Positions 26,246 through 64,000 of a DNA stretch of 64,000 nt are shown in pieces (position 1 is the stretch's first letter; each line of letters starts with the position of its first letter). The notes below the pieces were generated by a model that worked only from the letters and a program-made list of their open reading frames with translations, was not told where the DNA came from and made no database searches. Both the position numbers and the translations under genes were made by a program. This stretch comes from an uncultured virus (IMG/VR IMGVR_UViG_3300037088_000888) (Duplodnaviria > Heunggongvirae > Uroviricota > Caudoviricetes), in IMG/VR virus record IMGVR_UViG_3300037088_000888; one strand, given 5' to 3'.

Positions 26246-26365
26246 AAATTATTACATATTTAAATTTAATTAATAGACATAATTATAAAATTTTCATCAT
26301 AATCATATATAATTGATTAATCAATTAAGAATATTAAATTTTTATATAATGTTTACCAAGAAAAA

Positions 26366-26662
26366 TTATTTTTCCTGTTTAGACTCTAACTTGTTTTCAT
26401 TATTATTTTCATCTGGTTTATTCTTTTCCTCTTGTACTTCTGTCTTTTTCTGAAAGAATAAAAATGTCATTGCTGTTCCTGCTACCGAACCATAAAGAAC
26501 ACCTATTGCAGTAGCTATCTTCATAAGATCAATCTCAGGTTTAAAAACTCCTATAACAATGAATATTAACGCCATCAGAAGCCCGCAAACTATCATTATA
26601 TCAGCGATCAATCTACTGTTAGATTGATTGCCTTGCCCGTCTTGTAAAAAACTATTATCCAT
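26366..26662 (-). CDS. Two-TM membrane protein, holin-like
   Basis: SNSRL followed by two hydrophobic helices and a charged C-terminal tail. Confidence 0.5.
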   Translation of the reverse strand: MDNSFLQDGQGNQSNSRLIADIMIVCGLLMALIFIVIGVFKPEIDLMKIATAIGVLYGSVAGTAMTFLFFQKKTEVQEEKNKPDENNNENKLESKQEK

Positions 26663-26716
26663 AATATTATATTTTATATAAATACTTATATTTTATGAAA
26701 ATTTTACTTTCAAAAA

Positions 26717-26986
26717 TTAATTATCATCAAAAGCAACGATATATGTACCCGGTTTTAAATTAAAAGAAATTTCTACAATTGAAAGATATTTTCCTATATT
26801 TTTCATTAAAACAATTTTGCCAGAGATATCATACATTCTTATTACTGGAGGTAATGCACCTTCTTCAACAGAAGCTGTAAAGTGATCATGCATGGGATTA
26901 GGATAAATTTTTATACCATTAGAAGTATTTCTTTGCATTGAAATACTAATAAAAACAAAAAATAATATTATTAATATTTTTTTCAC
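26717..26986 (-). CDS. Signal peptide + stand-alone T9SS type A C-terminal sorting domain
   Basis: GTG start, MKKILIILFFVFISIS; IKIYPNP...MYDISGKIV...LKPGTYIV matches the Por secretion CTD consensus. Confidence 0.75.
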   Translation of the reverse strand: MKKILIILFFVFISISMQRNTSNGIKIYPNPMHDHFTASVEEGALPPVIRMYDISGKIVLMKNIGKYLSIVEISFNLKPGTYIVAFDDN

Positions 26987-27021
26987 TGAATTATAATATT
27001 ATTAGTGAACTATAATTATTA

Positions 27022-29754
27022 TTACTGAACTATAACTATTATTTTTGTGCCAGAATACACTGGTTTACCGCCTGAAAATATTACATGAATTGAGGTGACA
27101 GTAGCAGTGGTAAATTGTAATTCATTCCCATAAGCCGTGCCAATACTATTTGTTGCATAAGCTCTTACATGATAAGTAGTATTTGTTGTTAATCCAGTTA
27201 TTGAACTTGTGAATGAACCTGTGCCCGTGCCATCGGATGTATTATTATTTGCTATTGTCGGATTTGCAGAGGTGTTCCAACATACTCCTCTTGAGGTCAC
27301 GCTTGCGCCTCCATCAGAGGTCAGATTACCTCCGCTAGACGCTGTAGTTTGAGTAATATTAAAAATTGCAGTAGTTGTTATTGTTGGTATAGCAGAATTA
27401 GTCAGTGTTGTAAATTGCACATCTGCCCCGTAAGCAGTACCTGCGCTGTTTGTAGCATAAGCCTTCAAATAATATGTGGTATTAGGAGCTAAAACAATGC
27501 CTGTAGTTGCCACAAATGGATTAGTAACTTCATACGGATAAGTATATACATTGGAAATTCCACCATAAGGTGCATCGGGCAAATCATCAATTGTTGATCC
27601 AATAACATTACTCCATATAATTCCAGCATAAGTTACTGTTGCCCCGCCATCATTAATTATTGTGCCTCCACTCTGAGCATTTGTATTTGTTATATTTGTA
27701 ATAACTGTAGTTGTAACTGTTGGAAAAGTAGGACTTCCTGCTGGAGTAACCGTCCCTGCCCCAACAAGAACCAATGAAGAATAAGATGGCAGTGTTATTG
27801 TTCCAGAATATGCTGTATTTGCAATATCAACCATTTCAGCAGATAAAGTATAATTGACACCTGATTTTGTTGCATTATAAATGAAGTGAATATTATTCAT
27901 ACTTGATGTTGAAACGGATGAGAATGTAGAACCTGTCTCTCCTGATCTTGAAAGCCAATAGGCATAAGTCCTGTAATTATGTCCTGCTGTTGGTTCGGAA
28001 GTATAAAAATCCTGATCCACCCCATCATCAACAGGTCTCCCGTATATATTACCGGAAGCCGTTGTAAGTCCAAATGAAGGAATATCATCAGTGTTACTAT
28101 AAGCAGCTATTAACATCTGTCCGGCACGTTGAGCAATAATCTTATTATTACTTAAACTAAGATTTCTTATTGGATTATCGGACTGATCTTCCAGATATTG
28201 AACATCCATATAGTTACTATATAGTAGATTATTTGATACTGACATGTCATGTGAATTATGCAGCTTAATACCAGACCCATGTACTGTATTCACGCATGTA
28301 TTCCCTGTGAGTGTTATCCCTGTATTTGGATAATCACAATAAATAGCTTCAGCCGTTGTCCAGAATGACGTTGCCCATGTTCCGGATATGCCTTCCATGC
28401 TGCCTTGCGTATTTATGCAGATATTATTTGATATGACTCGTCCCGTACTATTCCCATTCACATAAATACAACCAGAATCAAAAGCCCTACTGACACAATC
28501 ATCAAATAAATTTTTATCAACTACATTATAAGCACCTCCCTGTATATATGCACCAACACTGCCAATATGTCTGAAAATATTATATTGAATCAAAGCGTGT
28601 GTACCAGTGGTAATATTAGATGCCATCCCACGTGAATACCATCCACCTGTCATACTATAAATCAAACCTATATTTTCAATGATACTATTTGTTAAAGTAA
28701 GATAATTATAAGCCTGACCAAGAATTGCAGTACCATTAATATCATGAATCCAACAATTATCATAAGTTGCATAATCACCCGGAAATGTTCCACCAGCTCC
28801 TATAAATCCTATCTCACAGTTAGTAACAGAAACATAACTTGATCCTCCCAGTTGTACGGCTGATTTATTATAATATGTATGATCTCCATTATATCCTAAG
28901 AAACTTATATTATCAATAGTAATATAAGATTGTGCGCAAACTACTGCATTATCCAATGTCGCTACATTAACAATTTTTGTCGTGGGATCAACCGCACCAA
29001 AATACATATAAAAAGTAGTGCCGTCATGAAACCATTCTCCTAATTGCGGAGCAACACCATTAACTGTGCCAAGTGTCAAAAGTGAATTATCTATGAAATA
29101 TCCCCACCCAGCATAACTATTTCCTCCACACCAACTATCATCTCCACCCTGTTGAGTATAATTAATTTGGTGTGTTGGCTGACTGGTAATTGTACCATGA
29201 TTCCATCTATAACCTTCTGTTTTCAGAAATATATTTGCACCTGTCCAGTTAGGAGAAGCGGGTAAACTATTATCTGTAATATAACCCATGCCTACAGTAG
29301 TATTAGTCAACCAGTTTCCTTCTTTCGGGTATCTGCCTTTCCCTGTATTAACACCATTCACAGTAACCATGTTAGTCGGTACAGATGTGCAAGTAACTGC
29401 TTTGGAATATATACCACCTCCATTATTCGACCAACCTGATATAGTCGTGAATCCTGTTATTATCGGTTTTGCACCTGAGCCATAAGCACCAAAGGTAATA
29501 CGACTTCCTGATGTTCCAGATTGTGAAATTGTCAGAGTGCCATACCACGAGTCACCACGATTGAATAGTATATTATCTCCTGCTGCAAGTGTTACAGTAC
29601 CCGTCCACCCTGTCAGCCCCGGGCAATGCCCCCATGCAGTGCCTGTTGATGTGCCATTGGCATTATCATTACCCCCTGCTTTGACATAATATGTTGTTGC
29701 CTGAAGTGTCAGGGTGACTATCAAAAATGTTAATAAAATAAGTAGTCTTTTCAT
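27022..29754 (-). CDS. Signal-peptide protein with right-handed beta-helix (pectin-lyase-like) and two FN3-like domains
   Basis: MKRLLILL...LQA; TYYV..GND...G; FNRGD; Asn-rich helix rungs; PTVTTT.I.NIT...TTYY.KAYATNS.GTAYG twice. Confidence 0.75.
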   Translation of the reverse strand: MKRLLILLTFLIVTLTLQATTYYVKAGGNDNANGTSTGTAWGHCPGLTGWTGTVTLAAGDNILFNRGDSWYGTLTISQSGTSGSRITFGAYGSGAKPIITGFTTISGWSNNGGGIYSKAVTCTSVPTNMVTVNGVNTGKGRYPKEGNWLTNTTVGMGYITDNSLPASPNWTGANIFLKTEGYRWNHGTITSQPTHQINYTQQGGDDSWCGGNSYAGWGYFIDNSLLTLGTVNGVAPQLGEWFHDGTTFYMYFGAVDPTTKIVNVATLDNAVVCAQSYITIDNISFLGYNGDHTYYNKSAVQLGGSSYVSVTNCEIGFIGAGGTFPGDYATYDNCWIHDINGTAILGQAYNYLTLTNSIIENIGLIYSMTGGWYSRGMASNITTGTHALIQYNIFRHIGSVGAYIQGGAYNVVDKNLFDDCVSRAFDSGCIYVNGNSTGRVISNNICINTQGSMEGISGTWATSFWTTAEAIYCDYPNTGITLTGNTCVNTVHGSGIKLHNSHDMSVSNNLLYSNYMDVQYLEDQSDNPIRNLSLSNNKIIAQRAGQMLIAAYSNTDDIPSFGLTTASGNIYGRPVDDGVDQDFYTSEPTAGHNYRTYAYWLSRSGETGSTFSSVSTSSMNNIHFIYNATKSGVNYTLSAEMVDIANTAYSGTITLPSYSSLVLVGAGTVTPAGSPTFPTVTTTVITNITNTNAQSGGTIINDGGATVTYAGIIWSNVIGSTIDDLPDAPYGGISNVYTYPYEVTNPFVATTGIVLAPNTTYYLKAYATNSAGTAYGADVQFTTLTNSAIPTITTTAIFNITQTTASSGGNLTSDGGASVTSRGVCWNTSANPTIANNNTSDGTGTGSFTSSITGLTTNTTYHVRAYATNSIGTAYGNELQFTTATVTSIHVIFSGGKPVYSGTKIIVIVQ

Positions 29755-29762
29755 ACTAATTT

Positions 29763-31604
29763 TTATTGATGTTCATAACATCCCATGTCCGGCAACCCGA
29801 CTATTGGATTGCCTAAAATATCTACTTGTGGGATAGTTGCAATAACTGTTCCTGTATTCTTACAAGGTGAACCTGTCTGTAGGGTAAAATCTGATCCAGT
29901 CGTAGTAAATAATGGGTCGACATAGCCACTATGAGCATCCTGACTGCTTGCTGATTTCCATGCTGCAAAAGTAGTATAAGGTGCTCCTCCGTTGTATTGA
30001 GCATAAGCATATACAGCAGTACCTCCTGTAGATTTATATACTTGATTATAATCACTTGTCCAGAATCCAGTACTACTGATTTCCCAGTTGAAATAATAGC
30101 TATCTGAAGCTGTCGAAAAATAGAATATATTATTCTTCATTGTTATATTCGTGCCATGTACTGCAAAAAGTTGTGTAAGTATAACTGCAACCCCATTATT
30201 ATAAACAGTGTTATTATAAAAATATACATGGCCTCCAATTGTATTCGCAAACATAATCGGTGCGTAGGCTCCTCCTGAGTTACCACAGTTAACAACTAGA
30301 TTATAATAAATATTGAAAACATCACCCGTCCCAGAAGTACCAATTCCAATAGCTTGACTGGCTGTTGTGGTATTACAATCATGAACGTAATTGTATCTAC
30401 AAGTCACCGTTGTACTACCTTTTGTATGGGGATCAAGAAATATACCCTCTGCATCATGACCACTTTCATTGTTTTGAATAACATCACCATTAGAATTAAA
30501 TGTCTGATAAGCAGTTCCATCTGAATATTGTCCCGCTATAGCATAATCGTGTATAGAATAAGCAGAATAACAATTCTTAATTGTATTATAATCACTACCT
30601 ACCCCTCCTGTTCCTTCACCACCAATTTGATTACCCCATGAGATAAACGTATTACCATTATACGTACCTGTACATCTCTGTATTGTAGAATAACTATATC
30701 CGTCATAAAGACCAATTCCGGCAAGTCTGTTACGATAAACATTGCAACTATCAATGAGCGAATATCCATCCACTTCTACACCTGAGCCTTCAAGTAATAT
30801 CCCCTTACTTCCCGCCATTCTTACATCCAGATAAGAAATAGTAAGATATTTTTTTGTTGAATAAATACCATAATCCCTTGCCGATACTTCAGATGTCACC
30901 GTAGAAGGATCGGTAGCTGAACAAACATAGACACTATCAGGAGTACCTACCTTGATGAAATATTTACCTGAACTCAATGCCGCCACCGAAGTAGTCTGCG
31001 TGAAAAGTATCCCATTAATAACTACCATACACCTTGCAGGAGTAACATTAGGACAGACTATTCCCCAGATATTTGAATATTGATGATATTTATGACCCCA
31101 TCCTGTCTTAATATCGGCGGCGTTAATCTTGGGCTTTGCCCCTGTTCCGTAAGCTGTAAAGGTAATCGGATTCGTTGCTGAACCATTTTGTGTTATAGTA
31201 AGTTGTTCTCTCCACTGATCCCCACGATTAAAATAAACTTTTGATCCGGGAACTAATGATGCCATTGCACTATTTATTTTTGCTATTGTCTGCCAAGGTG
31301 TTGCAGGTGTTAACCCATCTGCCCCATCCGAACCTGCATTAGCTATGTAATATGTAGGATAAGAGGGTGATGAAGCTGCTTGTAATGATATAATAGATGT
31401 CCTAAGTGCTGCTATGCTATCTTGCAAAGTATTTAACTGTGTCTGCACATAACCAGAAGGTGTCCTAATATCCTTTGCAACATAAACACTATCTCCAAAA
31501 TACTGCTTTACCTTATATGGTTGCCATCCCGGAAATGTCCAAGCCTGACTGAATAGCGAAGAAGTGAAAACTAAAAAACAAAATAACATTAATATTTTTT
31601 TCAT
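29763..31604 (-). CDS. Signal-peptide protein with right-handed beta-helix and choice-of-anchor-Q-like C-terminus
   Basis: MKKILMLFCFLVF...SQ; YYIANAGSD...PWQTI; FNRGD; FYNNTVY; DFTLQTGSPC...PDMGCYE. Confidence 0.75.
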   Translation of the reverse strand: MKKILMLFCFLVFTSSLFSQAWTFPGWQPYKVKQYFGDSVYVAKDIRTPSGYVQTQLNTLQDSIAALRTSIISLQAASSPSYPTYYIANAGSDGADGLTPATPWQTIAKINSAMASLVPGSKVYFNRGDQWREQLTITQNGSATNPITFTAYGTGAKPKINAADIKTGWGHKYHQYSNIWGIVCPNVTPARCMVVINGILFTQTTSVAALSSGKYFIKVGTPDSVYVCSATDPSTVTSEVSARDYGIYSTKKYLTISYLDVRMAGSKGILLEGSGVEVDGYSLIDSCNVYRNRLAGIGLYDGYSYSTIQRCTGTYNGNTFISWGNQIGGEGTGGVGSDYNTIKNCYSAYSIHDYAIAGQYSDGTAYQTFNSNGDVIQNNESGHDAEGIFLDPHTKGSTTVTCRYNYVHDCNTTTASQAIGIGTSGTGDVFNIYYNLVVNCGNSGGAYAPIMFANTIGGHVYFYNNTVYNNGVAVILTQLFAVHGTNITMKNNIFYFSTASDSYYFNWEISSTGFWTSDYNQVYKSTGGTAVYAYAQYNGGAPYTTFAAWKSASSQDAHSGYVDPLFTTTGSDFTLQTGSPCKNTGTVIATIPQVDILGNPIVGLPDMGCYEHQ

Positions 31605-31615
31605 GACTATATATT

Positions 31616-32674
31616 TTAAAATGGATAACTTGTTCCTGTATTTTCTTTAACATATACTGAATCAACCCCTGAAGCGGACAAAGCCCTTCTCCATATCCCC
31701 AATTCGTCCAAAGTTCCTACTAACCCATAATTGTCACTAGCATCATCATTGGCAATAATAGCCTGAGCAGTTGAGACTTTCAGTGTGCCGGAAAATGTAC
31801 CGGGTGAAGTTGAAACATCAACATCATTGATATAAAGTTTAAGTGCCTGACCATTACCGGGACAAACAGCGACTATGTGGTACCATTGACTGAGCCCTGT
31901 TATTGCTGCACTATTAACCTGATAAGTCACGTCTGATGTGTTATCAAATATCGCATAGATTTTATTATCATCTTTATTCCATAGAACTCTTGATGTTTCG
32001 CTTGTCCCTGCAATTTCATGAGTGAATAGCCATTCATTTCTTGTAACAGTGGATGGTAATGAAGTTGGATAAAACCAAAAAGAAATAGTCTCTTTATCTG
32101 TTATTGCAGAAAATGCTGCATAGGGTACTGTGGCATAGCCTGTATTATTATATGTGACTGCTTTGCCAATTTTTCCTGTCTGATTGACTGTACCTGCTCC
32201 AAGGGTAGCATTATGTGCTCCTGCCGTAGCATCTGCCAGATTTGTTCCTGATGTTTCATCAAACTTCCAATAGCCAACCAATTCATTTAAAAGAGTAGAG
32301 GGTGATGCTGAAGCTGCCGTACTATCAATAATAGCTACACGATGCCAATAACCACCAGAGAGATAATGTAGTTTATTATCAACAGAATTTATGTAAGCAT
32401 TACCTGTTGCAGGATCAGACGAAAGTACAGGTATTAAATTCGAAGAAGAATTATTATCATAAGCTCTATCATTAAAAGGAATATAATACATAAGAGTGTC
32501 TGAACCTTTATATGAAATAGCTGTATGTGTTCCAGATAATGCAATAGAATCGGTTTTTAAAATAGTATGACTTGTTTTCTTACCAATCTCTATTCCATTT
32601 GGTGCAATAAGTTGTCCATAACTTATTGTTGTAAACATTATTAAAACCAAAAACGCAATTAATTTTTTTTTCAT
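31616..32674 (-). CDS. Signal-peptide protein with LamG/concanavalin-A-like domain
   Basis: MKKKLIAFLVLIMF...YGQ; LVGYWKFDE, TISFW, WYHIV, LYIND, LDELGIWRRALS. Confidence 0.8.
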   Translation of the reverse strand: MKKKLIAFLVLIMFTTISYGQLIAPNGIEIGKKTSHTILKTDSIALSGTHTAISYKGSDTLMYYIPFNDRAYDNNSSSNLIPVLSSDPATGNAYINSVDNKLHYLSGGYWHRVAIIDSTAASASPSTLLNELVGYWKFDETSGTNLADATAGAHNATLGAGTVNQTGKIGKAVTYNNTGYATVPYAAFSAITDKETISFWFYPTSLPSTVTRNEWLFTHEIAGTSETSRVLWNKDDNKIYAIFDNTSDVTYQVNSAAITGLSQWYHIVAVCPGNGQALKLYINDVDVSTSPGTFSGTLKVSTAQAIIANDDASDNYGLVGTLDELGIWRRALSASGVDSVYVKENTGTSYPF

Positions 32675-32838: not shown

Positions 32839-35800
32839 TTATCCTAACACATATAATTTTGTTGTCCATACCGTTGCTATTCTTTTTTGAATAATGAAGT
32901 CTGTTCCTCCACTTATTGCAAATCTCCAACTGCCATCAGTGTCTTTATTGCCTAAATATAAATAATTACAAGTACCATTTACAATTTCAGTAGTACCACT
33001 TATTACTAATCTTTTAGTATCAAATTCACCATAAATTAATGGATTAACAGTACCTGAATTTGCAATATAAAGTCTACATCCATCGGTTTCGTTATAACCA
33101 GCACAATTACCTATATATATACTTGTACTACCAGTAACTTGTGAATACCCTGCTTGATAACCTATTGCAACATTATATGAACCATGAGTATTGCAATAAA
33201 GTGCATAATGACCATTAACAACATTAGCATTACCACAAGTATTATTCAGAAGTGCAGCAGTACCGTTTGCAATATTAGCATTACCACAAGTATTATTATA
33301 AAGTGCTTGAACACCATTTGCAATATTAGCATTACCACAAGTATTATTATAAAGTGCTTGAACACCATTTGCTATATTATCACAACCACAAATATTATTA
33401 TAAAGTGCTTGAACACCATTTGCTATATTATCATTACCACCAGTATTAAAATAAAGTGCTTGAACACCATTTGCTATATTATCACAACCAATTATATTAC
33501 AATAAAGTGTTTGAGAACCAATTGCAATATTATTAGTACCACCAGTATTAAAATAAAGTGCCTGATATCCCACAGCAACATTATCACAACCACAAATATT
33601 ACCGCATAATGCTTGATGACCTATTGCAATAAGGCAATAACCACAAGTATTATTAAAAAGTGCATTAGAACCTATTCCAATATTATTACAAGACTCTCCA
33701 TTACATCGAAGTGTATTAAAACCTATTGCAATATTATTAGAACCAATTATATTATACAAAAGTGCTTGAAAACCATTTGCAACATTGCCAACACCACTAA
33801 TATTAAATTCAAGTGCACTATTACCAATTGCAACATTACAACCACCACAACAATTAGCTTCAAGTGCACCAGTACCTATTGCAACATTATATGAACCACA
33901 ACTATTACAAGAAAGTGCATCAGGACCAATTGCAATATTACAACTACCACAAATATTACCTTGAAGTGCATTAGTACCAATTGCAATATTACTATAACCA
34001 CAAATATTACTTTGAAGTGCTTTATAACCATTTGCAACATTGCCAAGACCACTAATATTACTTTGAAGTGCTTGAAAACCAATTGCAACATTGCCAAAAC
34101 CACAAGTATTACTGTAAAGTGCTTGAAAACCAATACCAGTATTATCACAACCAGCAATATTAATATTCTTACCTGCACAAACACCAATAAATGTATTACA
34201 TAAAGATGTGTTGCCACTTGCAACTGTTCCACAACCAACAACAGTTGAACCATTAGTTAAATTTGACCAACCAATACCACAAATATTAATTACATTTGCA
34301 GTACTGCTCATTGAAATACCACTTCCACCACTTAATGACTTAAATTTTAAGTTATTATTAGCAACTGTTGAATAAACAACACATCCACTACCTAAACTTG
34401 TAGCACCAGTAATTGCTAATGCTTTTGTAGCATAACAAGCAGCAAGTGAACCACCTAAACATAATGCATTTCCTGCAGTTGTTGCACATATTGCTGTACT
34501 ACCAGTATTAAGATAATAAGCAGGTAATTTATTACCCAATTTTGCACTATCAACTGCACAAGCAGTAGCACCTAAAAAACATGATGGTGTGCAAGCTACT
34601 AATGTTGATGCATTACCAGCGCAAGTTGCACATAATGCAGTACTGCCAGTATTAAGATAATATGCTGGTAATCTATTATTTAATTTTGCTGAATCATTTG
34701 CACAAGTAATTGTAGTACCTGTATTAAGGTAATATGCAGGTAATTTACCACCTAAACATAATGAATTTTTAGCTGTACCACCAGATAAAAGATAACCTGC
34801 AGCTAATACTCCATTTAAACAACAAGAATCATTACTTTTTAGTGAAACTGCAGTGCCAGTTAAACCTGCACCACTACCAACAAAACAAGTAGTTGCACAA
34901 ACAATAGGTGCGCAAATACAAGTTGTAAAATTAGGACTTGCTATTGGTGCATAATAACTTGCTAATTGTCCGTTTAAACAAGTACTATTTTTTGCAGTAC
35001 CACCACTAAGTAAAAACGATGCTGGAACACAACCACAAAGGTTTTTAGCACCTATTGCACAAGTTGCACATATTGCAGTACTACCAGTATTGAGATAATA
35101 TGCAGGTAAATGACCACCTAAACATTTCGAATCACAAGCACATGCGGTTACTCCCAAGAAACATGAAGGAGTACAACCAGCCACGGTACTTGCATTGCCA
35201 GCACAGGTTGAACATACAGCAGTACCACCACTAAGTAAAAATGATGTAGGTACACAGCCACAAAGATTTTTTGCTCCAACAGCACAAGTCGCACAACCAA
35301 CAGTTAAACTGGCTGCAGTGCCTGTTAAACCAGCACCTGAACCAGCAAAACAAGTAGTTGCGCAATGTATTCCACCACATACAGCAGTTAAACCACAAAC
35401 AGTTCCACCAGAAATTAATGGGCTTCTCACACATGAAGATGCGCACATAATTGTACCTGTAACACAAGTACCTGCAAGAATACACGTATTGCTACAAACA
35501 ATAAAACCACATACACAACTAGAACCTAATATAATAGGACTGCAAACACATGATGTACCAATTGTAATTGAAGAACATAAGCAAGTGCTTGCACATATAT
35601 TGCCAGTTACACCCAATTTTGTGCCATCAAATGTCATATTAACATTTGAATAAATTTTTGATGCGGACAAATAAGTGCCAACACCATTAACAGTTGAACC
35701 ACTCCATAGAATTCCACCAGCAACAGGAGTACACCAAATACCACAACCAGTAGCATTTGACGTGAAAACACATCCTGCTCCAGCACCTGTTGTTAATTGA

Positions 35801-36939
35801 ATAACTGGTGATTCAACACAACTTGAACCACTTATTATTGTTCCTTTAACTACACCTGTTGAACACATTACGGGAGTACATATACATGTTGTAAAATTAG
35901 GTGAAGCAAGTGATGCATAAGTATTAGCTAAATTACCGCCTAAACATAATGAATTTTTAGCTGTACCACCACTAAGAAGAAAACTTGCAGGTACACAACC
36001 ACATAATGCTTTTGAATTAATTGCTGTTGTTGCACATATTGCTGTACTACCTGTATTAAGATAATATGCAGGTAAATGACTACCTAATTTCGATGAATTT
36101 ACTGCTGTACCACCAGACAATAAAAATGAATTTGGTGTACAACCGACTAATGTTGAAGCGTTACCTGCACAAGTAGCACATAAAGCTGTTGAACCAGTAT
36201 TAAGATAATATGCAGGTAATTTATTATTCAATTTAGCACTATCACAAGCACAAATAATAGTAGTGCCAGTATTAAGATAATAAGCTGGTAATTTATTACC
36301 TAATTTAGCACTGTCTACTGCACAAGAATTTGCACCTAAAAAACAACTTGGTATACAACCACATAATGCTTTAGAATTAACACTTGTTGCTCCAGTTGCA
36401 AGATATTTATTTGCAAGACAAACACCATTTTCAATAAATTTAACGCTTGTTGTATTACCACTAACAATTAAATCATCATCAATTATACTTATTCCATTAA
36501 TAGTATTTGTAATATATGAACCATCGCTCCATTGTATTGAACTACCTGTTATTAATAGTATATTGCCATTTGTTAAATTTAAATTACCATTAGTTAAATT
36601 TAAATTATGTGTTGCTAAATTAATTGTAGTATCTCCAGTTAATGTACCACCTAATTTAACAACATTACCAACCTTTGTTAAACCATTAATTGCTATAGTA
36701 AGTCCGGTATTTGCAATACCACTATCTTTAACAACTAAAGCAGTATCAGTAACACCTGTTTTATACCAATATTCTATTTTATTTACATTAACTGTTAAAC
36801 CAACATATCTTTGTGACAATACTATTGCCGTATTAACAGCAGTAACACCAGTATATGGTTGATTTAAAGAATTTAAATATTTAGAATCAATCGGATTACC
36901 AACATTAATTTTTAAGTTATCGTTTAAAACTATTGCCAT
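32839..36939 (-). CDS. Cys-rich tail fibre/adhesin with trimeric stalk repeats and YadA-head-like 14-aa repeats
   Basis: Seven LPAYYLNTG units; long N(I/V)A(I/N)G.QAL.NN.CG run; C-terminal DGSWRF. Confidence 0.7.
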   Translation of the reverse strand: MAIVLNDNLKINVGNPIDSKYLNSLNQPYTGVTAVNTAIVLSQRYVGLTVNVNKIEYWYKTGVTDTALVVKDSGIANTGLTIAINGLTKVGNVVKLGGTLTGDTTINLATHNLNLTNGNLNLTNGNILLITGSSIQWSDGSYITNTINGISIIDDDLIVSGNTTSVKFIENGVCLANKYLATGATSVNSKALCGCIPSCFLGANSCAVDSAKLGNKLPAYYLNTGTTIICACDSAKLNNKLPAYYLNTGSTALCATCAGNASTLVGCTPNSFLLSGGTAVNSSKLGSHLPAYYLNTGSTAICATTAINSKALCGCVPASFLLSGGTAKNSLCLGGNLANTYASLASPNFTTCICTPVMCSTGVVKGTIISGSSCVESPVIQLTTGAGAGCVFTSNATGCGIWCTPVAGGILWSGSTVNGVGTYLSASKIYSNVNMTFDGTKLGVTGNICASTCLCSSITIGTSCVCSPIILGSSCVCGFIVCSNTCILAGTCVTGTIMCASSCVRSPLISGGTVCGLTAVCGGIHCATTCFAGSGAGLTGTAASLTVGCATCAVGAKNLCGCVPTSFLLSGGTAVCSTCAGNASTVAGCTPSCFLGVTACACDSKCLGGHLPAYYLNTGSTAICATCAIGAKNLCGCVPASFLLSGGTAKNSTCLNGQLASYYAPIASPNFTTCICAPIVCATTCFVGSGAGLTGTAVSLKSNDSCCLNGVLAAGYLLSGGTAKNSLCLGGKLPAYYLNTGTTITCANDSAKLNNRLPAYYLNTGSTALCATCAGNASTLVACTPSCFLGATACAVDSAKLGNKLPAYYLNTGSTAICATTAGNALCLGGSLAACYATKALAITGATSLGSGCVVYSTVANNNLKFKSLSGGSGISMSSTANVINICGIGWSNLTNGSTVVGCGTVASGNTSLCNTFIGVCAGKNINIAGCDNTGIGFQALYSNTCGFGNVAIGFQALQSNISGLGNVANGYKALQSNICGYSNIAIGTNALQGNICGSCNIAIGPDALSCNSCGSYNVAIGTGALEANCCGGCNVAIGNSALEFNISGVGNVANGFQALLYNIIGSNNIAIGFNTLRCNGESCNNIGIGSNALFNNTCGYCLIAIGHQALCGNICGCDNVAVGYQALYFNTGGTNNIAIGSQTLYCNIIGCDNIANGVQALYFNTGGNDNIANGVQALYNNICGCDNIANGVQALYNNTCGNANIANGVQALYNNTCGNANIANGTAALLNNTCGNANVVNGHYALYCNTHGSYNVAIGYQAGYSQVTGSTSIYIGNCAGYNETDGCRLYIANSGTVNPLIYGEFDTKRLVISGTTEIVNGTCNYLYLGNKDTDGSWRFAISGGTDFIIQKRIATVWTTKLYVLG
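33240..33560. repeat. 42-bp coding tandem repeat (NIANGVQALYNNTCG) inside the fibre gene; boundaries approximate
   Basis: Recurring aaagtgcttgaacaccatttgc at 42-nt spacing. Confidence 0.8.
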
Positions 36940-61045: not shown

Positions 61046-61684
61046 TCAAATTGACAATATAACTATTAGATATCTTTTAAGGTGAGAAAAATCTGGAAGT
61101 ATTTTATAATATGATAGATATATGCTACCATCTAAATCATTCTGATATTTTTTTGTTCTTTCTTGTATTCTTGCAAGAATTTCTAAGGTATTAAATTTAA
61201 AATTTTTATACATCAGCAAATCGATGCCAGTGATCTTATTACCCGCCAATAAATAAATCATTTCATTTTTAAAATTATATAAAAAATCAATTTCTTTTGG
61301 GAGAACATCCATTAATCCTTCAATATCAGTTATTTGAAAAAATAATGGGTCTAAGTTTATAAAATTATATTTTGGTTGAAAATAAAATTGTGGTACTAAG
61401 CTAACAAATTTTTTAATGCCTTTTACATGTGATGGTTCACTTTCTTCAAAACTACATTCCCAATATAACTCATTTGCAATTATCTTTTTATGAAGAATAT
61501 TAGCATTTTGAATAATCTCATTAAAGGGATTGCAGGATTTCATGAACGACCATCCCACATATAATGTAGGTAGTGTTTTATCTACTTTATTATATTCGGT
61601 AGATGAATTGAAATAATTAACATAATCAACTTTTGTGTGATTTATCAATTCTTTTTCATAAATAATGTTAGCAAGTTTTATCAT
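61046..61684 (-). CDS. Hypothetical protein
   Basis: 212-aa ORF overlapping the end of hldD. Confidence 0.55.
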   Translation of the reverse strand: MIKLANIIYEKELINHTKVDYVNYFNSSTEYNKVDKTLPTLYVGWSFMKSCNPFNEIIQNANILHKKIIANELYWECSFEESEPSHVKGIKKFVSLVPQFYFQPKYNFINLDPLFFQITDIEGLMDVLPKEIDFLYNFKNEMIYLLAGNKITGIDLLMYKNFKFNTLEILARIQERTKKYQNDLDGSIYLSYYKILPDFSHLKRYLIVILSI

Positions 61685-62576
61685 TTAATTTATTTATATA
61701 TTTCGAAATACCATCTTCTAACTCACTAAAAGGTTTTTTATAACCAGTCATCCTCAACTTATTAATCTTAGCTTCAGTAAAATATTGATATTTATCTCTG
61801 ATTAAAATCGGAGTGTCAATATAATCAATTAAAAGCGGAATATCAAGACTTTTAAAAACTGCGCTGCCAAGATCATTAAATGTACGTGCTTTTCCAGTAC
61901 CTACATTATAAATACCTGAAAGTGGTTTTTTATCGTATAAAAATAAACAAACATCAACTATATCATCAATATAAATGAAATCTCTTTTTTGTTCACCGTT
62001 TTCATAATCTGGACGATGTGATTTGAATAATTTAACTTTTTTTGATTCGTCAATCTGATTGAACATGTGAAAAGCAACTGATGCCATTTTACCTTTCTGT
62101 GCTTCTCCATACCCGTATACATTGAAAAACTTCAGACCATACCAGTTTGGTGGTTGTTGCTCTTGAATTTCTGCCCATATATCAAATTGTTGTTTTGACC
62201 AGCCATATGGATTTAATGGTTTAAGATTAATAATATCCTTCTCATCATCAAATCCTTCTTTACCATCACCATATGTTGCTGCAGAACTTGCATAAATCAA
62301 TGGTATACCCCAATCTGAACATAAATTCCAGATAAAAATTGAAGATTCAACATTATATTCATCGAATAAACTCTTATTCATTTCAGTAGTATCGGTAATT
62401 GCTCCAAGGTGAAATATACAATCAATTTGATCAGCATAGGTTAAAAGCCAAGAATAAATAAAACCAAGATTTTCGGTTTTTGTATCAAGACTTACAACAC
62501 CAATATTGCCCTGTCTTTCCAACTCTTTAACAAGATTTTTGCCAATAAATCCTTCACCACCTGTTACTACTATCAT
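61668..62576 (-). CDS. hldD: ADP-L-glycero-D-manno-heptose 6-epimerase
   Basis: VTGGEGFIG, HLGAITDTTE, YASSAATYG, PLNPYGWSK, FFNVYG, KGKMAS, YQYFTEA. Confidence 0.88.
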   Translation of the reverse strand: MIVVTGGEGFIGKNLVKELERQGNIGVVSLDTKTENLGFIYSWLLTYADQIDCIFHLGAITDTTEMNKSLFDEYNVESSIFIWNLCSDWGIPLIYASSAATYGDGKEGFDDEKDIINLKPLNPYGWSKQQFDIWAEIQEQQPPNWYGLKFFNVYGYGEAQKGKMASVAFHMFNQIDESKKVKLFKSHRPDYENGEQKRDFIYIDDIVDVCLFLYDKKPLSGIYNVGTGKARTFNDLGSAVFKSLDIPLLIDYIDTPILIRDKYQYFTEAKINKLRMTGYKKPFSELEDGISKYINKLNDKTC

Positions 62577-63007
62577 GAATTTTTAATTTTTTCAATAATA
62601 TTTGTTGTTGACCTCTCGTCTACTTTATAATAGATTACACCATATTTCGAATTCTCATGTCCAATTACTTCTTTATCTTGATATTGATTACCAACAATCA
62701 TATAATCAATACTCAATTCTTTAACTAATTGTCGCAGTTCATCATCTGTATTAAATATAAATACTTCATCAACCATTCTCAAATTACGCATTATTGTTAA
62801 ACGTGTGTCAATGTCATTTATTGGTCGTTTATCTCCTTTTAAATTTTTAACTCTTTCATCACTATCAAGTCCAACAAATAAAGTGTTGTGAACAATAAGT
62901 GGTGTATAAAATATTTCAAAATCTGGATTAAACATCTTTGCATAATTCAATAACTCAATATGCCCTGTATGTAAGATGTCAAAACAACCATTAGTCCAAA
63001 TATTCAT
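62573..63007 (-). CDS. Heptose-1-phosphate nucleotidyltransferase (HldE domain II / HldC-like)
   Basis: TNGCFDILHTGH, VGLDSD..V..LKG..RPIN, STT.II. Confidence 0.85.
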   Translation of the reverse strand: MNIWTNGCFDILHTGHIELLNYAKMFNPDFEIFYTPLIVHNTLFVGLDSDERVKNLKGDKRPINDIDTRLTIMRNLRMVDEVFIFNTDDELRQLVKELSIDYMIVGNQYQDKEVIGHENSKYGVIYYKVDERSTTNIIEKIKNS

Positions 63008-63294
63008 AATTCATTAATTTTAAACGCTTTATCATCGATAATTCTATCATATGCAGGTTTGCTACTCATATCTAGTTTATGATGCAAACATCCCCAATCT
63101 CTCAGTTGTTTACGAGTTAAAATTGACCAATTTTTACGTGTAACTCTGCCACGAGCAGTCCAATAAACAATCGTATTGCCTTCATTATAAAGTCGATTTA
63201 TTTTATCAATATTTTCTTGAATCGGTTTGGAATTCTTATAATCACTATCAATAGTTGTACAAATTGTGTTATCAATATCTACGTAAATTAACAT
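63004..63294 (-). CDS. Small HAD-family phosphatase
   Basis: VDIDNTI, WTARG, KP..D..IDDK. Confidence 0.75.
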   Translation of the reverse strand: MLIYVDIDNTICTTIDSDYKNSKPIQENIDKINRLYNEGNTIVYWTARGRVTRKNWSILTRKQLRDWGCLHHKLDMSSKPAYDRIIDDKAFKINEL

Positions 63295-63665
63295 TGACTA
63301 TCTCCTTTCTCTATTCTATAACTATCATTATCATTATGTGGTGTGCTTACTTCAAATATTTCACTTTCTTCAAGTGCTTCCAGTTGATGTGGAGTATTGC
63401 GTTCAATATGAATAATATCTCCTTCTACAAGACTAATATGCTGTCTTGCAGCAGTTCTTGTATCAATTGTGGTTAAGTTAAAAATACCTTTATTAACATA
63501 AAATGATTCCGTCTTTAAAGAATGAAAATGTAGGCTGAACATACCACCTTTTCTAAAACGCAATAATTTTCCACAATAATCTTCTCCATTGTGAATAATA
63601 ACTTCTTCGCCCCATGCTTTCGGTACGTGTATTTTTTTATTTGTTACATGTGTAATTTCTATCAT
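63288..63665 (-). CDS. Cupin (sugar isomerase-like)
   Basis: PKAWGEE, SLHFH..K.E, PHQL, EVST; start more likely at MIEIT (63665). Confidence 0.75.
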   Translation of the reverse strand: MIEITHVTNKKIHVPKAWGEEVIIHNGEDYCGKLLRFRKGGMFSLHFHSLKTESFYVNKGIFNLTTIDTRTAARQHISLVEGDIIHIERNTPHQLEALEESEIFEVSTPHNDNDSYRIEKGDSQC

Positions 63666-63666
63666 A

Positions 63667-64000
63667 TTATTTAATTTTATATCTATCAACCACTGCCACA
63701 CCTTTTTGCGTTACTGCCCAAGCAGCACATTTGTTTGCAAATATAATTGCATCACAAATATCGTTATTTTCTATGAATTTCGCAACAAGTCCTGCAAAAA
63801 AAGTATCACCTGCACCTGTAAGATCACGTACAGGATGTTCATTAACATTTGGATACATCTCAGTTCTACATGCGCCATTATCATTATAATAACGCATCGC
63901 ACCAGCTTCACCTAATGTCACAATAACGTCATTTGGAAAATGAAGTGTTAAATAACCTTCATTTTGATCAAACTCTTTTTTATTTATTTTAATGAATTTT
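63667..64000 (-). CDS. PfkB-family sugar kinase (HldE domain I / HldA-like), 3' part only
   Basis: Frame open to the window end: KFIKINKKE...IVTLGEAGA...DLTGAGDTF. Confidence 0.8.
   Translation of the reverse strand, partial: KFIKINKKEFDQNEGYLTLHFPNDVIVTLGEAGAMRYYNDNGACRTEMYPNVNEHPVRDLTGAGDTFFAGLVAKFIENNDICDAIIFANKCAAWAVTQKGVAVVDRYKIK

Follow-up and report, generated by a model that had tools for sequence, protein, structure and literature searches.

Type A CTDs, the domains that route cargo through the T9SS, are described as seven-stranded (PMC11285876 and PMC12618676, in their accessible parts). As far as the available text of the former goes, removal or replacement of the seventh strand (β7) blocks the export of known cargo, and a glycine equivalent to that of motif B is needed for export of RgpB. 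The accessible portion of PMC10994853 reports that the conserved Lys1110 of RemZ contacts PorV and is the only CTD residue known to do so, the CTD motifs mostly specifying the fold and not translocon contacts. In a crystal, β7 of RgpB swaps between CTD monomers (PMC4804311, available part). Reduced versions are reported from Prevotella intermedia: its short CTDs are three-stranded, with β3, β6 and β7 retained in cis (PMC11969387, available part). Phage T9SS cargo with whole CTDs is already published as well, comprising exported carbohydrate-active or adhesin-like proteins of a Cryophage (PMC7468147) and of crAss-like BACON loci (PMC6949934), in so far as the accessible sections describe them.

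Here we describe an 89-aa gene product (the mini-CTD; 26717..26986, minus strand) in the window, by which we mean the whole 64,000-nucleotide stretch of uncultured-virus DNA that was analysed. It shares with the type A CTDs of RgpB, RemZ, RemA, NucA and mirolase the β1-β6 sandwich, YPNP, the glycine of the Lβ3β4 loop, G-x-Y and a Sec-type leader, but it has no cargo in cis, and β7 with its conserved lysine is missing throughout the 50 members of its family. Whereas the published phage cargo, so far as described, carries the CTD on the cargo gene (whole and fused in the records analysed here), the mini-CTD is separate and incomplete. The Prevotella short CTDs resemble it in being reduced, and their PT/GI consensus resembles a T-S-I motif in the cargo discussed below, but the mini-CTD keeps β1-β6 and loses β7 (PMC11969387, available part). 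The strand-swapped RgpB dimer (PMC4804311, available part) likewise has an Ig-like fold with a seventh strand from another chain; there the partners are identical whole CTDs in a crystal, whereas here the candidate donor is the C-terminal tail of a different gene product. Bacteroidota also have stand-alone proteins made of a leader and a whole CTD (P0106, P0219), which are similarly cargo-less and about 100 aa long but which, unlike the mini-CTDs, keep β7 and score below 70 bits against the family profile. Chaperone-usher pilins also use donor-strand complementation, the donated strand there being an N-terminal extension. In the literature searched we found no split or β7-less phage CTD, and the conserved mini-CTD arrangement is undescribed there, although such genes may appear in the supplementary data of PMC7468147 and PMC6949934.

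The mini-CTD and its truncated family

The mini-CTD ORF opens with GTG and closes with TAA. The first-pass annotation had described it as a leader joined to a type A CTD, and this description holds: the protein scores 31 bits against TIGR04183 (cut-off 23; model positions 1-58 of 72 covered) and 32.2 bits against PF18962 (cut-off 27; positions 1-64 of 75), and is the only above-cut-off CTD match in the whole virus record. Its AF2 model (mean pLDDT 90) consists of an N-terminal helix and six strands in place of the seven-stranded β-sandwich of type A CTDs, and it stands alone, whereas the CTD of type A T9SS cargo is fused in cis behind a passenger. A Sec signal peptide is predicted at about residues 1-16 (26939..26986, minus strand; model helix at residues 2-16, cleavage site putative), signal peptides being judged throughout by a charge/hydrophobicity rule only. 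Among solved structures, T9SS CTDs take the first three places (Z 7.2-7.5, rmsd 1.9-2.3, 63 residues aligned), with DUF3244 Ig domains nearly as close (Z 6.9-7.0). Model residues 24-89 align with residues 1040-1102 of the RemZ CTD and end 8 residues before the conserved Lys1110; the terminal strand, which had looked truncated on first inspection, is indeed missing together with its lysine, as it is in the 50 relatives. Motif B in the Lβ3β4 loop (YDISGKI; 26813..26833, minus strand) is kept. Foldseek returned zero matches to the mini-CTD at E ≤ 0.001, its Atlas matches were generic PF18962 clusters, and no family for it was found in PHROGs.

A phmmer search of the mini-CTD against 1.84 billion representatives gave 152 matches, the best full-length ones being 82-93 aa long. 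The family profile retrieved 41 proteins at 73 bits or more, some of them already in the query alignment, with the next at 65 bits, and an NCBI source is given for none of the 41. Our family alignment comprises 50 truncated members; P0023, P0029 and P0049 (at least 70 bits, longer tails) and eight cluster-mates or near-duplicates of members were left out. The aligned members end 7 (31 members), 8 (12), 9 (5) or 12 (2) residues after G-x-Y, whereas 279 of 318 other CTD proteins have 14-26 residues there and never fewer (the other 39 lack the motif); β7 with the conserved Lys (motif E, at the C-terminus) is absent from 50/50. The members fall into 25 groups at 60% identity, and the median pair is 43% identical; P-N-P, G80 and Y82 are invariant (50/50), the motif B glycine (G56) is found in 48/50, and 42/50 have a Sec-like leader by the charge/hydrophobicity rule. 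In 17 of the 50, a Pro directly follows the likely signal-peptidase site (F-A-P-Q; columns near residue 19). Pro just after the cleavage site can block signal peptidase, and these members may be left membrane-tethered.

A fused form was encountered only once among 7998 longer candidates scored, namely P0023, in which FN3 is joined to a family CTD that has β7. Single-sequence searches with the mini-CTD matched only the protein itself and no viral locus, and tblastn of INPHARED with P0021 gave zero matches. Among 65 genome_contigs loci scored, one was at family level (L016, E 2e-41; next best 1e-9), and in a sample of 301 genomes from the taxonomic family to which the Bacteroidales bin of L016 belongs (17 candidates scored per listed genome) the single family-level match was the phage contig itself. 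Matches from pattern scans were mostly dismissed as chance or ordinary CTDs (9/10 in metagenomes; also 1/2 and 2/3), and 8 of 9 matches to the tail pattern were rejected, all of them off-frame or antisense. A quick tree (120 CTDs, 68 columns) was poorly resolved; it places the family beside one clade of ordinary CTDs and not beside phage cis-CTDs, and neither supports nor contradicts monophyly. Taken together, the conserved truncation, the diverged members and the near-absence of fused or bacterial forms argue that the family is maintained and not a relic, with members so far only from phages.

The short ORF might instead be a pseudogene, a frameshift remnant or an assembly artefact of a longer cargo-CTD gene, and past the TAA the DNA does encode F-L-K-V-K-F-S in frame and K-I-F-I-K in another frame. 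However, the stop recurs in a contig of run X4 (26255-27164, 0 differences) and in one X6 contig, its position is shared by 50 diverged relatives, most with a leader of their own, and the lone fusion in P0023 is all that was seen of a fused form. We find this explanation hardly credible and regard it as largely refuted. One shallow X5 contig has a 2-nt deletion near the gene start, which may be an error. Metatranscriptome contigs cover part of the mini-CTD gene and scattered parts of the cargo, but are no evidence of expression because DNA carry-over is possible in that run. Restoration of β7 by readthrough or frameshifting into the DNA past the stop was also considered and was rejected: the relatives share the stop position, and at two related loci (L002 and L013, described below) the next gene begins within a few bases.

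The adjacent cargo, its loci and its tail

Upstream of the mini-CTD on the minus strand lie genes for three predicted exported proteins: the 910-aa cargo (27022..29754; leader, right-handed β-helix with PF13229 at 36.8 bits, two FN3-like repeats and a tail), a 613-aa protein (29763..31604; weak choice-of-anchor-Q-like end, NF041518 at 18.4 bits and thus below the cut-off of 25) and a 352-aa LamG protein (31616..32674; PF13385, 68 bits). The earlier observation that these three have signal peptides and no CTD is borne out, in that all have leaders by the simple heuristic and none has an above-cut-off match to TIGR04183 or PF18962. The 613- and 352-aa proteins have no tail. The 613-aa gene, which is homologous to a 1199-aa gene at L013, is the first of a recurring two-gene cassette, and homologues of the FN3 regions of the 910-aa cargo carry fused whole CTDs in other large phages. 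Groups of two to three genes with Sec-like leaders are found in tail regions of G002, G003, G030, G037 and G048 (L161-L179) as well as in the window (27022-32674), spanning phages of different virion types; virion fibres that are exported would be odd. Some of these leaders are followed by IGT-x-A-N-x-G-x-G-D-x-LR, which we take to be a tail-fibre baseplate-attachment motif.

On the 3' side of the mini-CTD is a 98-aa two-helix membrane protein (26366-26662, minus strand), holin-like by position only, of which a 68% relative exists in an unrelated 39-kb phage (L001) without a mini-CTD. The window also encodes a 1366-aa cysteine-rich repetitive protein with PHROG tail-spike/virion structural matches (32839-36939, minus strand), numerous homing-endonuclease-like ORFs, and, with G000:C1:1942-21686, an extended stretch of nucleotide-sugar, glycosyltransferase-like and methyltransferase-like genes (from 61668-63701 in the window; read by eye).

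The virus record comprises 112,403 bases at an estimated completeness of 37%, and most of the window's DNA recurs in peat metagenome runs. From its baseplate wedge, DNA polymerase and tail-spike-like genes we read the window as a jumbo, myovirus-like phage, and the CTD in the mini-CTD gene suggests a Bacteroidota host. Mini-CTD loci with DNA number three: the window, G002 (L002) and G003 (L013), between whose mini-CTDs 26-34 residues are identical. G002 and G003 have crAss-type terminase and portal families in common and a crAss-like gene order and are, in our reading, probably crAss-like phages. At 3/3 loci the mini-CTD gene directly follows that of a large leader-bearing β-helix cargo, and the cassette sits among tail/fibre or structural genes. 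Cargo stop and mini-CTD start overlap as ATGA in G002 and G003. In the window, the junction consists of three imperfect 19-20 nt tandem copies (26983..27041, minus strand), the third ending in a GTGA overlap that we read as a likely relic of the same translational coupling. A recent triplication of the 19-20-nt unit appears to have shifted the cargo stop here upstream of a former stop/start overlap. Similar β-helix cargo pairs with whole cis CTDs were seen in G009, G016, G017 and G023, and complete type A CTD cargo at L185:4823-11427 and L186:4904-11862 (G009 and G016) and also in G010, G011, G017 and G023. Such complete phage T9SS cargo includes β-helix proteins of 630-1690 aa and others of 292-316 aa, and lies outside any evident tail module.

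The 910-aa cargo ends in SGTKIIVIVQ. Its 24-residue tail (27025..27096, minus strand) runs from T-S-I through a hairpin to a last strand, KIIVIVQ, and provides a candidate β7 donor together with a candidate PorU-type cleavage site. The three cargos linked to a mini-CTD have the C-termini TSIHVIFSGGKPVYSGTKIIVIVQ, TSISPVTHNGVPVISGGKILIITR and TSITPLKYGNKFLKSGEIFLKR. T-S-I lies at positions -22 to -24 (19-21 residues following) in 3/3 linked cargos and 0/15 unlinked tails, although the motif was picked post hoc, only three cargos are linked and six of the 15 unlinked tails are near-identical. T-S-I fits the PT/GI cleavage consensus given in the accessible part of PMC11969387. The L002 cargo has a similar tail although its end is without FN3, and that tail contains no Lys. 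Modelled alone, the cargo tail has a pLDDT of 40-51 behind a well-modelled FN3-like domain. With 22-24 aa and no G-x-Y the tails differ from short three-stranded CTDs (43-55 aa; motifs B, D and E), and Atlas returned nothing usable for the cargo tail. When tails were scored for β7-likeness, with 196 true β7 strands as reference and 312 ORF ends as background, that of the window fell in the top 2% and that of L013 in the top 5% of the ORF ends, both lying below the 5th percentile of true β7; the L002 tail equalled background and was not significant. Two unlinked tails outscore the linked ones, and most unlinked tails equal background.

Similar hairpin tails without a mini-CTD in the available DNA occur at 15 of 57 viral FN3-cargo loci (L085, L090, L093, L100-L103, L112, L114, L117-L119, L123, L127 and L133), as judged by eye and with several records ending near the gene. 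They form a recurrent C-terminal double hairpin on leader, β-helix and FN3 proteins with no CTD gene nearby, some resembling motif B/E, and this is possibly a minimal sorting or docking tag. Two of the 49 records searched whole for the mini-CTD family were positive (G002 and G003), and three complete tail-bearing genomes matched neither the family nor TIGR04183. The mini-CTD is thus accompanied by a T-S-I tail in 3/3 cases, while looser tails occur without a mini-CTD in three complete genomes; tails of this kind therefore either need no mini-CTD or do something else.

Predicted strand donation and competing explanations

The suggestion that the upstream protein supplies the missing strand in trans was followed up by co-folding mini-CTD residues 19-89 with the last 36 residues of the cargo. 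The score was 0.66 (runs 0.70, 0.66 and 0.35) versus 0.18 for the best control, the controls not being hydrophobic-strand peptides; the mark applied is reached by 116/157 solved pairs and 2/215 mismatched pairs. Contacts agree between runs to at least 55%. The last 11 tail residues (26-36) dock antiparallel on β6, with I31, V33 and V35 facing V84, Y82 and G80 (84:31, 82:33, 80:35), and contact the YPNP region, which is the place of β7. By counting, this register would leave tail K30 some two residues away from where the canonical Lys lies. The outcome favours the suggestion in its score, but the tail itself has a pLDDT of only 42-61, and the pass may reflect memorised solved CTDs, which the two halves resemble. 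Binding of the cargo's last strand in the β7 slot is a prediction of the model.

Our preferred reading, to which we give a probability of about 0.5, is a T9SS signal split between two genes, put together in trans and used by no cargo other than the adjacent one. Its starting point is what is directly observed, namely the anatomy of the proteins, the conserved truncation and the gene order. Translation of a β-helix/FN3 cargo that lacks a CTD would be coupled to that of the six-stranded mini-CTD, and both proteins would be exported through Sec. In the periplasm the cargo's last strand would slot in beside β6 by donor-strand complementation; to the seven-stranded CTD rebuilt in this way the mini-protein would contribute motifs B and D, and the cargo the C-terminal strand. 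Export of both by the host T9SS would follow, perhaps with PorU cleaving at T-S-I and anchoring the cargo to the surface of the host cell, where it could mask receptors or act on polysaccharide. To the broader proposition, that Bacteroidota phages split the type A signal into a six-stranded acceptor that is exported on its own and a donor tag of roughly 22 residues, and that the host T9SS recognises the non-covalent two-chain complex, exports it and attaches it by its sortase, we give a little under even odds. The similar cargo pairs with whole CTDs in cis in other large phages support a split signal, as do the P0023 fusion of FN3 to a family CTD with β7 and the β7 swap of RgpB; against it stand the hairpin tails of genomes that have no mini-CTD, the weak β7-likeness of the linked tails, the register of the lysine and the Lys-free tail of L002. 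Since CTD motifs mainly specify the fold, their conservation in mini-CTDs is no proof of T9SS use. The first-pass annotation had imagined an adaptor exporting its neighbours in trans. For the immediately upstream protein this gains support (truncation, 3/3 adjacency and coupling, co-fold), but the 613- and 352-aa proteins lack the tail, and the idea seems to extend no further than that one neighbour.

The co-fold would fit equally well if complementation were real and the T9SS uninvolved, the Ig-like domain capping, chaperoning or linking the C-terminal end of a phage fibre or adhesin that folds in the periplasm. Small assembly proteins are encoded after tail-fibre genes, and in the window, G002 and G003 alike the cassette's neighbours are tail/fibre or structural genes, in agreement with such a role; leader-bearing genes without any CTD in the tail regions of G030, G037 and G048 point the same way, as do the absence of the sole CTD residue known to contact PorV and the missing tail Lys in L002. 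Yet the same module is present in phages of different virion type, its cis-CTD version lies outside any evident tail module in G009 and G016, and both the motif B glycine and the cleavage-like T-S-I are conserved, which together make a fibre role rather unlikely in our estimation.

A decoy that simply jams the T9SS, as had also been proposed, is weakened by the absent PorV-contact residue and by RgpB, whose defective CTDs left Kgp export intact (PMC11285876, accessible part). In a strand-swapping form, the β7-less domain would capture host CTD β7 in the periplasm, leaving host adhesins or phage receptors undisplayed (superinfection exclusion), with some members perhaps staying membrane-tethered, for which the 17/50 with Pro just after the likely cleavage site could be cited. 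There is a case for such a decoy: in Flavobacterium, T9SS mutations make cells resistant to phage, and the system and its cargo probably serve as receptors (PMC9804748, in the part available); CTD β7, moreover, can swap (PMC4804311, in the part available); that tails occur without a mini-CTD would also agree with a tail that may not need one. Tight coupling to the gene of a T-S-I-tailed cargo at 3/3 loci is unexpected of a free decoy, however, and with the intact Kgp export just mentioned we think a decoy improbable. About as improbable, if not slightly more so, is that in all these phages the tail of 22-24 residues works by itself as a minimal T9SS signal, which the mini-CTD boosts or stabilises in some without being required. 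Tails commonly occur with no mini-CTD, and two of these score as good β7 matches; Prevotella has three-stranded short CTDs, and the last 22 residues of Hbp35 are reported as required for GFP export (PMC11969387, accessible part). But the phage tails have neither G-x-Y nor motif B and are half the length of those short CTDs (43-55 aa), and most unlinked tails score as background.

Significance for T9SS and phage biology

If true, the split signal would amount to a tag/catcher system for secretion that exists in nature. In known T9SS cargo the CTD is in cis and cannot do without its last strand; a signal split in nature would show the translocon pulling a passenger that is held only by a donated strand, and would be a direct test of the role of β7 and its lysine, left open by the translocon structures in the accessible text of PMC10994853. 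It would likewise provide a short tag through which surface display in Bacteroidota could be made conditional, and predicts that T9SS cargo can include exported proteins without a CTD, which predictors relying on the CTD would overlook. For the phages themselves, it would be a route to remodel the surface of their host.
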